Source: Minisyncoccota bacterium
Lineage (GTDB): Bacteria; Patescibacteriota; Minisyncoccia; Phycocordibacterales; XYD1-FULL-46-19
DNA length: 53,788 nt
Reading direction: 5' to 3'
Assembly: GCA_041663165.1 (NCBI GenBank)
Contig: JBAZRF010000006.1
Span: forward strand, 1-53,788
Position 1 is the first letter of the stretch. Every line of letters begins with the position of its first letter. Below are positions 11,290-12,898 of this stretch, piece by piece. Made by a program: the position numbers and the translations under genes. The notes below the pieces were generated by a model. That model had not been told where the DNA came from. It ran no database searches and saw only the letters and a program-made list of their open reading frames with translations.

Positions 11290-12750
11290 TATATTAGAGT
11301 TTGATCTTGGCTCAGGATGAACGCTGGCGGCGTGGATAAGGCATGCAAGTCGAGTGGGTTTAGACCCACGGCGAACGAGGTAGTAACACGTGGGAATTTC
11401 CCCCAGAGTCGAGCATAACTGGCCGAAAGGCCAGATAATTCTCGATGGTCTCTAAGGAGTAAAGATTTATCGCTCTGGGAAAAGCCTGCGAGATATCAGC
11501 TAGTTGGTAAGGTAATGGCTTACCAAGGCTATGACGTCTAGGGGAGCTGAGAGGCTGACCCCCACCGATGGGACTGAGACACGGCCCATACACCTACGGG
11601 TGGCTGCAGTCGAGAATCTTCCGCAATGGGCGAAAGCCTGACGGAGCGACGCCGCGTGATGGATGAAGTACTTCGGTACGTAAACATCTTTTATCAGGGA
11701 AGAACTAAAGTGACGGTACCTGAGGAATAAGGGGCTGCAAAACTCGTGCCAGCAGCAGCGGTAAAACGAGTGCCCCAAGCGTTATCCGGAATTACTGGGC
11801 ATAAAGGGTGCGTAGGTGGTCTTATTAGTCGTTTGTTAAAACTCCCGGCCTAACCGGGAAGCAGTGAACGAAACGGTAAGACTAGAGAGAGTGAGAGGTT
11901 AGCAGAACTCATGGTGTAGGGGTGAAATCCGTTGATATCATGGGGAATACCAAAGGCGAAGGCAGCTAACTGGCGCTTATCTGACACTCCAGCACGAAAG
12001 CGTGGGTCGCGAACGGGATTAGATACCCCGGTAGTCCACGCCCTAAACGATGATCACTAGCTTTTTGGAGTATCGACCCTCTGAGAGGCACAGCAAACGC
12101 GTTAAGTGATCCGCCTGGGAAGTACGGCCGCAAGGCTAAAACTCAAAAGAATAGACGGGGGCTCGCACAAGTGGTGGATTATGTGGTTTAATTCGACGCT
12201 AAACGAAGAACCTCACCAAGGCTTGAAATTCAGTTGAAATTCTCCAGAAACGGAGAACCTCCCACAAGGACAACTGGACAGGTGATGCATGGTTGTCGTC
12301 AGTTCGTGGTTTGAATTGTTCCCTTAAGTGGGGTAACGAACGCAACCCTCGTGGCCTGTTACAAGTGTCAGGCCAGACTGTCCTGTTCAACAGGAAGGAA
12401 GCGGGGATGACGCCAAATCAGCATGTCCCTCTGACGCCTTGGGCTACACACATAATACAATGGTCGCTACAAAGAGACGCAAGACCGTAAGGTGGAGCAA
12501 ATCTTGAAAAGCGGCCCCAGTTCGGATTGAGGTCTGCAACCCGACCTCATGAAGTTGGAATCACTAGTAATCGCAGGTCAGCTATACTGCGGTGAATACG
12601 TTCTCGAGCCTTGTACTCACCGCCCGTCAAGCCAGGGGAGCCGGGAGTGCCCAACGCTCCGCTTTACTGCGGATCTAAGGCAAGTTCGGTGACAAGGGTT
12701 AAGTCGTAACAAGGCACGGCTAGCGGAAGCTGGTCGTGGATTTATTTCAA
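11290..12750 (+). rRNA. rrs: 16S rRNA (stand-alone, about 1.46 kb, divergent CPR-like)
   Basis: Conserved strings read directly: AGAGTTTGATCTTGGCTCAG (11296-11315), GTGCCAGCAGCAGCGGTAAAAC (11746-11767), GGATTAGATACCCCGGTAGTCC, AAACTCAAAAGAATAGACGGGGG, TTGTACTCACCGCCCGTCA (12611-12629), AAGTCGTAACAAGG (12701-12714). Helix 45 with its GGAA loop lies at 12715-12738. The ends were placed by eye. Confidence 0.95.
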
Positions 12751-12898
12751 ATTACGTTCCGAGATTGCCACAAGCAATCAAGGAAAATCGGCGATATCGT
12801 CTCTGACGATAAGGTGATGATTCTATTTTCACCAATTGAATTCTTTTCGAAGGAATTCAAAGAACAATGAATTCGAGGTTTCGTCTCGTAAAACGATA

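Follow-up and report, generated by a model that had tools for sequence, protein, structure and literature searches.

Pairing between the Shine-Dalgarno (SD) sequence of an mRNA and the anti-SD sequence, CCUCC, at the 3' end of 16S rRNA is the textbook route by which bacterial ribosomes locate start codons. Here we analyse a 16S rRNA gene (rrs) whose 3' tail lacks CCUCC, located on a 53,788-nt stretch of DNA from a Minisyncoccota bacterium (contig JBAZRF010000006.1 of assembly GCA_041663165.1; hereafter, the window). Comparable losses have been described before. In their passages on this motif, Tsurumaki, Saito, Tomita and Kanai (RNA 2022, PMC9297842) detected CCTCCT in only 48% of Parcubacteria, noted that the motif-less lineages overlap the group lacking uL1, and considered SD helices not to form there. 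A PLoS One 2024 paper (PMC10783764), in its section on 'SD-scarce organisms lacking CCUCC', includes Campbellbacteria and Wolfebacteria, and a 2025 study (PMC12641178) presents the Paceibacteria as a class without rplA. The loss of CCUCC is clade-typical and already published, and the genome studied here is one more member; the original prediction, which was made from the DNA letters without database searches, had been unsure whether the feature was described for this lineage, and the published loss in a Parcubacteria/Paceibacteria subgroup settles that point.

Three further groups of bacteria offer points of comparison. Actinobacteria, Deinococcus and the 'group C' genomes of GeneMarkS-2 are rich in leaderless mRNAs, have a normal anti-SD, and use SD sequences on their leadered genes. 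In the Bacteroidia, the ribosomal protein bS21 hides the 16S tail. Initiation in this group, studied in Flavobacterium johnsoniae, is SD-independent while CCUCC is retained, as stated in the relevant passages of Baez et al. 2019 (PMC6847099). The part of PMC10783764 that deals with reduced genomes lists Carsonella, Hodgkinia, Nasuia and the haemoplasmas as lacking CCUCC.

The source genome (G000; other G numbers denote further Patescibacteria genomes, C numbers contigs, and f numbers families) comprises 741 kb in 16 contigs, with 44% GC and a marker-gene completeness of 100%, and the window is its contig C6. Profile searches with the bacterial small-subunit rRNA model RF00177 of Rfam, at a threshold of 50 bits, recovered a single, full-length 16S rRNA gene (Table 1) and no second rrs in the 741-kb genome, and the anti-SD loss therefore stands. 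The 3' end of the gene aligns to the model without gaps. All ten pairs of the helix 45 stem are standard or G-U, its loop is of the GNRA type, and across 64 distinct relatives the stem is invariant or covarying (GC, CG or GU at one pair). The helix is followed by GAT at 12739-12741 and then by TTATTTCAAA at 12742-12751, such that the tail reads GGAUUUAUUUCAAA where bacteria usually have GGAUCACCUCCUUU, and the 13 unpaired 3' positions of the model, GAUcACCUCCUUu, are represented by GAUUUAUUUCAAA in this gene. Neither CCTCC nor CTCC nor CCTC occurs in the tail and trailer (12739-12925), and the sole CCTCC of the 16S gene is internal, at 12258. The model alignment thus bears out what the original prediction had read from the letters, namely an intact helix 45, the ensuing GAT and a tail without CCUCC. 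The pre-16S processing stem that it had proposed is likewise a real duplex, longer than the core strands given in Table 1 and with a folding energy of -60 kcal/mol, although its 3' strand begins at 12900, one base beyond the 12899 that had been given. Contigs from independent RNA runs (four public runs, contigs only) agree on the tail up to 12746, the last position covered by any contig of this strain. Genomes of the same genus share GATTTATTTCAAA(T/A)T, i.e. GAUUUAUUUCAAA(U/A)U, and diverge beyond it, which places the mature 3' end of the 16S rRNA probably near 12751-12753.

The same condition extends throughout the relatives of this organism. Every same-order relative with an assembled 16S 3' end (16 of 16) lacks CCTCC, as do all 124 distinct tails collected from named metagenome-assembled genomes of Paceibacteria or Parcubacteria. 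Because every relative with an assembled 3' end shows this absence, the observation is confirmed as real and cannot be put down to chance in a single gene. At least 119 species-level genomes have a helix 45 of exactly this variant, with records named Paceibacterota/Paceibacteria, Parcubacteria, Nomura-, Kaiser-, Taylor-, Zambryski-, Lloyd- and Staskawiczbacteria; judged by the names of these relatives, the genome would belong to the Parcubacteria/Paceibacteria, and its size of 741 kb fits such a placement.

On a broader scale, we surveyed a phylum sample of 401 genomes, 204 of which show the generic 16S 3' end, and recovered helix 45 followed by CCTCC in 193. The motif occurs in none of the five same-order genomes with a 3' end and in two of the eight such genomes from other orders of the class (G153 and G270), and is kept almost everywhere outside the class. 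Beyond the clade, the genomes without it have partly eroded cores (CUUCC, ACUCC and UCUCC in f34, CCGCC in f99, and CCCC in f112), and within the class f24 has the eroded core CUUCU. The anti-SD has thus eroded repeatedly, and to different degrees, in Patescibacteria. Individual genomes with such partly eroded cores (CUUCC, ACUCC, UCUCC, CUUCU) are G137, G260, G213, G065, G299 and G377. The sample also contains one genome with an unusual number of 16S 3' ends: G391 (1.1 Mb, family f136) matches the combined helix 45-CCTCC pattern 32 times and the generic 3'-end pattern 30 times, compared with 0-3 matches to these patterns in all other genomes.

We next consider the mRNA side of the pairing, using a crude gene set of 743 non-overlapping open reading frames (ORFs) of at least 80 aa, each taken from its first start codon and together covering 88% of the genome. 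GGAG, GAGG or AGGA is found at -20..-2 before 11% of these genes, compared with 10% far upstream, which is no enrichment; for genes below 48% GC, SD motifs occur in 5% of upstream regions versus 9% inside genes. No purine-G peak is present upstream of the starts in this set; at -13..-1, the frequency of G is reduced to 0.12-0.17 and that of A increased to 0.42-0.47. The duplex energy of the upstream windows with the canonical anti-SD likewise shows no trough. As a positive control, the same pipeline applied to 50 kb of E. coli K-12 recovered SD motifs before 36% of genes (57% with annotated starts) versus 7% within genes, with G peaking at 0.45-0.48 at positions -11/-10. The contention of the original prediction that most native genes here have no SD held for each of the seven start sites that it had listed, and genome-wide no SD enrichment was detected for either the canonical or the observed tail.

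A different signal precedes the operon-first genes, which we defined as genes with a divergent upstream neighbour or with one more than 60 nt away (375 genes). The 3' end of TATAAT concentrates at -7 to -11 upstream of the starts. For TANNNT, the final T lies at -7 before 54 of these genes, where the background is ~11 per position; the motif ends at -12..-6 in 40.5% versus 16.5% in the control interval, and a match of at least 5/6 to TATAAT ends there in 23.7% versus 5.1%. When a -10 hexamer ends 7 nt upstream of the A of ATG, the transcription start is placed on the start codon, which is the signature of leaderless transcription. Among same-strand neighbours, 269 of 535 pairs lie within 25 nt of each other or overlap, 28 of them through the 4-nt overlap ATGA, an arrangement that fits coupling or re-initiation. 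As for ribosome-associated components, the genome encodes a four-domain S1 protein (C5:38270-39526) and IF3, and profile searches of G000 found neither uL1 (PF00687) nor bS21 (PF01165). The same uL1 profile gave no match in the CCUCC-bearing class members G153 and G270, in agreement with the class-wide absence of rplA (PMC12641178). A coupling of anti-SD loss to uL1 loss was on this ground rejected, and the two losses are not strictly linked.

The TraG/VirD4-like coupling ATPase at 17909-19546 (domains TrwB_AAD_bind, TraG-D_C and DUF87), of native GC, has TATAAT and then AGGAGG 5 nt before its ATG. The start of an 1184-aa class I tRNA synthetase (G000:C2:72335-75889), isoleucyl-tRNA synthetase (IleRS)-like by its domains, is preceded by TAGGAGGATA; a complete histidine-phosphatase domain (His_Phos_1, residues 514-666, E=1.5e-29) is inserted within the IleRS-like catalytic domain of this protein.

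To place these observations in order, we compared genome stretches of relatives by the same crude analysis. The CCUCC-less relatives G377, G017, G285 and G028 show SD motifs before 7-12% of genes, and their -7 peak is clear. G153 and G270, the class members with CCUCC, have SD fractions of 4% and 13% and likewise the -7 peak, while four CCUCC-bearing Patescibacteria from elsewhere in the phylum have 6-19% SD versus 3-13% inside genes, together with a -7 excess. Weak SD use and leaderless promoters seem, then, to predate the loss of the anti-SD and to be more widespread than it. Since SD use is weak in CCUCC-bearing relatives too, the anti-SD probably decayed after it had ceased to matter, and relaxed selection first with decay of the anti-SD second is the likeliest scenario.

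Taken together, we consider it very likely that the gene encodes the functional 16S rRNA of a Paceibacteria (Parcubacteria, candidate phyla radiation) bacterium from the subgroup that has lost the anti-SD, and that its native genes are translated without SD pairing. Operon-first genes would largely give rise to leaderless mRNAs, to whose 5'-terminal AUG the ribosome and the initiator tRNA would bind directly. For downstream genes, the probable routes are either initiation at junctions that are rich in A, poor in G and presumably unstructured, or coupling or re-initiation, which we propose because half of the same-strand neighbours lie within 25 nt or overlap. The anti-SD would most likely have become dispensable first and would then have eroded under A+T-biased mutation, from CACCUCC to the UUAUUUC present here. 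We infer this mode of initiation from established knowledge of leaderless and SD-independent initiation in other bacteria.

Several points weigh against this reading. The longest-ORF start rule is crude, so that the fractions given above hold only approximately and the leaderless share is to be read as an estimated lower bound. The actual transcription starts are deduced from where the -10 box lies, and the mature 3' end from a comparison of related tails; the order of events is drawn from ten genomes, compared without a tree. Lastly, canonical SD boxes are conserved on a class of G+C-rich genes, which would not be expected of a cell in which SD sequences go unread.

The SD frequency rises with the GC content of the gene, from 4-6% at 40-48% through 21% at 48-52% and 34% at 52-56% to 43-50% above. 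GGAG, GAGG or AGGA at -17..-4 precedes 20 of the 53 genes with at least 52% GC (38%) versus 32 of the 596 below 48% (5%; odds ratio 10.7, p=9e-11), and strong SD boxes precede 22 of 147 genes versus 7 of 596; the G+C-rich set includes some spurious ORFs, e.g. one antisense in the 16S gene. That the G+C-rich cassettes carry SD sequences had been part of the original prediction, and it proves correct both genome-wide and for the gene at 13131, which has AAGGAG 8 nt upstream. The G+C-rich SD-led genes are short (median ~150 aa) and differ from the native genes at synonymous sites, with a G+C content at third codon positions of 0.61 versus 0.43. Several G+C-rich genes encode signal-peptide-like N-termini, yet without an excess over native genes (0.28 versus 0.25 in a simple N-terminal test). 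Most of the SD-led members have no Pfam family, the exceptions being a PASTA-domain lipoprotein (13131-13466) and a Band 7 protein, and Pfam as a route to their function accordingly gave no clue.

One possibility, which we judge somewhat less likely than not, is that these genes were recently imported from donors that use SD sequences and that their SD boxes are relics without function, and thus uninformative on the ribosome of this cell. The difference at synonymous sites, the scarcity of Pfam families and the confinement of the gene families to the genus are all in its favour. What stands against it is the persistence of the boxes. The two families that we traced have homologues only in the same genus and one family member, at 27-53% identity, and every orthologue examined combines a GC content above that of the flanking DNA with a correctly spaced SD; both high GC and SD are kept in orthologues from four to five same-genus species whose proteins are only 30-53% identical. 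In one of these families, that of a 441-aa gene, three species with proteins 30-43% identical agree on the box AAGGAGGTGA at 10 of 10 positions, and this box is a perfect complement of the canonical tail UCACCUCCUU, which is absent from these ribosomes. A relic of recent import should have decayed over such divergence, which points to something that maintains the SD boxes. The converse proposal, that accessory-gene boxes such as AAGGAGGUGA, which is the same in three species, are functional despite a 16S rRNA without an anti-SD, appears unlikely to us; if true, it would imply that ribosomes are recruited by a different partner, whether RNA or protein, or through a structural effect of the purine box.

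The surroundings of the 441-aa gene are conserved as well. Its 110 nt of upstream sequence are preserved in three species (G000:C9, G008:C4 and G005:C111), and the 5' region contains a hairpin with a compensatory change (CTCAACC..GGTTGAG versus CCCAACT..GGTTGGG), a T-run, and then AAGGAGGTGA. A separate intergenic search of the genome for a stray RNA carrying an anti-SD found none; the intergenic matches to CACCTCC/ACCTCCTT were rejected, as they are the reverse strands of SD sites.

In an alternative reading, the U-rich tail UUUAUUUCAAA is itself a replacement anti-SD, pairing with A-rich boxes such as AAAUAAA directly upstream of the starts. This alternative we regard as highly improbable. 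AAATAA, AATAAA and AAATAAA are indeed 4-9 times commoner at -8..-1 than far upstream, and their spacing roughly fits. However, this interval is enriched in every A-rich permutation (AAAAAA, TAAAAA, ATAAAA and others), whereas the G/C-anchored complements TGAAA and GAAAT are not enriched there, and the tails themselves vary among relatives. The duplex energy of the real tail is flat, at -0.6 to -0.75 kcal/mol at every position, and equals that of six shuffled tails; an SD complementary to the observed tail is rejected by these energies together with the k-mer permutations. A-rich upstream regions are, moreover, described in the corresponding part of PMC6847099 as typical of bacteria that ignore their own anti-SD. 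The weakest alternative, a defective or chimeric rrs copy alongside a normal, CCUCC-bearing one that was left unassembled, draws on the frequent absence of rRNA genes from metagenome bins and on the 16 contigs of this genome, but can be practically dismissed in view of the full-length 16S match with no broken helices near its 3' end, the gene's own promoter, processing stem and terminator, the tail confirmed in contigs from independent runs, and the same tail type in more than 100 species-level relatives, complete chromosomes among them.

We also compared what the former anti-SD positions have become. In most relatives the tail follows GGA-WYWA-UUCA-NNN-UGAA, with the 5' strand UUCA on the positions of the E. 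coli CUCC. The two strands show compensatory pairings, with UUCA/UGAA in 45 of 65 cases, CUCA/UGAG in 7 of 8, GUCA/UGAC in 2 of 2 and UCC-AAUY-GGA in ~25, and cross-combinations are almost never seen. An exact 4-bp complement across a 2-5-nt loop is present in 57 of 104 anchored tails, versus 4.0 +/- 1.9 when the downstream bases are shuffled. A fixed-register count on the gapless alignment gives 74.6% of cells paired and one covarying pair (U-A in 47 and C-G in 4 sequences); its support is modest because loop lengths vary, and the register-free test is much clearer. These data are suggestive of a covarying tail hairpin in most relatives, bearing in mind that related sequences are not independent. 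In the present genome the 3' half is UACG in place of the UGAA of relatives, such that the hairpin cannot form, while it is present in G003 and G008 of the same genus; the tails of a further subgroup are U-rich, GAUCAUUUAUUUUUU, and lack a hairpin.

The partly eroded lineages provide a possible antecedent of this element. There, the core is directly followed by its own complement, as in CUUCCUUUUUAAGGAA. In G137, G260, G213 and G065, the core is followed by AAGGAA or AAGGAG, the complement changing together with the core, and the resulting hairpin would bury the tail in the precursor. The tail hairpin of the CCUCC-less relatives may accordingly be descended from a precursor structure in which the anti-SD paired with the trailer. 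It may also have arisen on these positions by selection, as a structure that replaces the former anti-SD, e.g. as a signal for 3'-end processing or protection, rather than by drift.

The features of the window are collected in Table 1. The rRNA genes are unlinked, with the 3' part of the 23S gene and the 5S gene at 1-1121 and the 16S unit 10 kb downstream on the same strand; a tRNA gene follows the 16S gene at 13646-13719. The 530-loop region of the 16S gene (11740-11765) reads GUGCCAGCAGCAGCGGUAAAACG versus the bacterial consensus GUGCCAGCAGCCGCGGUAAUACG, with two changes. This stretch is among the most conserved in rRNA and is also the 515F primer site, so the organism would be missed or under-counted in standard amplicon surveys. 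For the largest G+C-rich ORF of the window, no SD box precedes the GTG at its first start codon, the only start considered.

Table 1. Coordinates of the 16S rRNA unit and of the G+C-rich genes in the window
Feature	Position	Strand	Basis or detail
Putative consensus-like promoter of the stand-alone 16S unit, TTGACG-16 nt-TATAAT	11050-11077	+	Read from sequence
Pre-16S processing stem, 5' strand	11244-11267	+	Pairs with 12900-12923
16S rRNA gene, single and full-length	11289-12751	+	Rfam RF00177, model 1-1533, 1374 bits
Helix 45, intact, 10 bp stem with GGAA loop, CACGGCTAGC-GGAA-GCTGGTCGTG	12715-12738	+	
3' tail GAUUUAUUUCAAAUU replacing GAUCACCUCCUUA, without anti-SD core	12739-12753	+	Model alignment
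Hairpin remnant, UUCA-AAU-UACG (relatives: UGAA)	12746-12756	+	Comparison with the tails of relatives
Pre-16S processing stem, 3' strand	12900-12923	+	Pairs with 11244-11267
Terminator-like hairpin and T-run 3' of the 16S unit, GACGCCC..GGGCGTTTTTT	12993-13018 (about)	+	Read from sequence
G+C-rich SD-led cassette	13023-13466	+	Putative promoter TTGACA-16 nt-TATAAT at 13023-13050
Cassette leader, ~80 nt with hairpin	upstream of 13131	+	AAGGAG at 13117-13122
Cassette coding sequence, 111-aa lipoprotein-like PASTA-domain protein	13131-13466	+	Pfam PASTA, E=6e-10; GC 0.57 versus genome 0.44
Largest G+C-rich ORF of the window, 615 aa from first start GTG, signal-peptide-like N-terminus	43864-45711	+	59% GC

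More generally, a species-rich clade without the rRNA half of SD pairing shows that this pairing is dispensable, and makes the clade a natural system for the study of leaderless and structure-guided initiation. It also has a practical consequence, in that gene finders relying on SD sequences will misplace starts in these genomes. What the present analysis adds to the published loss is incremental, namely the leaderless signature, the phylum-wide weak use of SD, the graded erosion and the tail hairpin; the conserved SD of accessory genes in a cell without an anti-SD is the only part that might still be new. The leaderless promoter signature, the covarying tail hairpin and the SD-bearing G+C-rich class are not described in the passages of PMC9297842 and PMC10783764 that treat the loss. 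A literature search for leaderless transcription in Patescibacteria or the candidate phyla radiation retrieved no report, with a coverage that was incomplete and does not prove absence.

In comparison with the known systems, reduced endosymbionts and mycoplasmas share with this genome its small size, the lost or eroded anti-SD and the scarcity of SD sequences, as far as the cited section on them describes; those, however, are isolated and very A+T-rich lineages, whereas here the loss characterizes a species-rich, class-level clade, in a genome of 44% GC. The leaderless-rich bacteria resemble it in the constant, short spacing between -10 box and start codon (peak at -7 here), but have kept the anti-SD that this lineage has lost. 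Native mRNAs of the Bacteroidia, to judge from the passages on their initiation regions, are likewise without SD, A-rich and G-poor upstream; in that group the anti-SD is kept, whereas here the sequence is gone and bS21 was not found by profile search. The closest match is with the anti-SD-lacking Parcubacteria, which in the published passages are also without CCUCCU at the 16S 3' end and without uL1, bS21 being often absent there; by the names of its relatives the genome falls in the same phylogenetic group, and nothing essential sets it apart from them.

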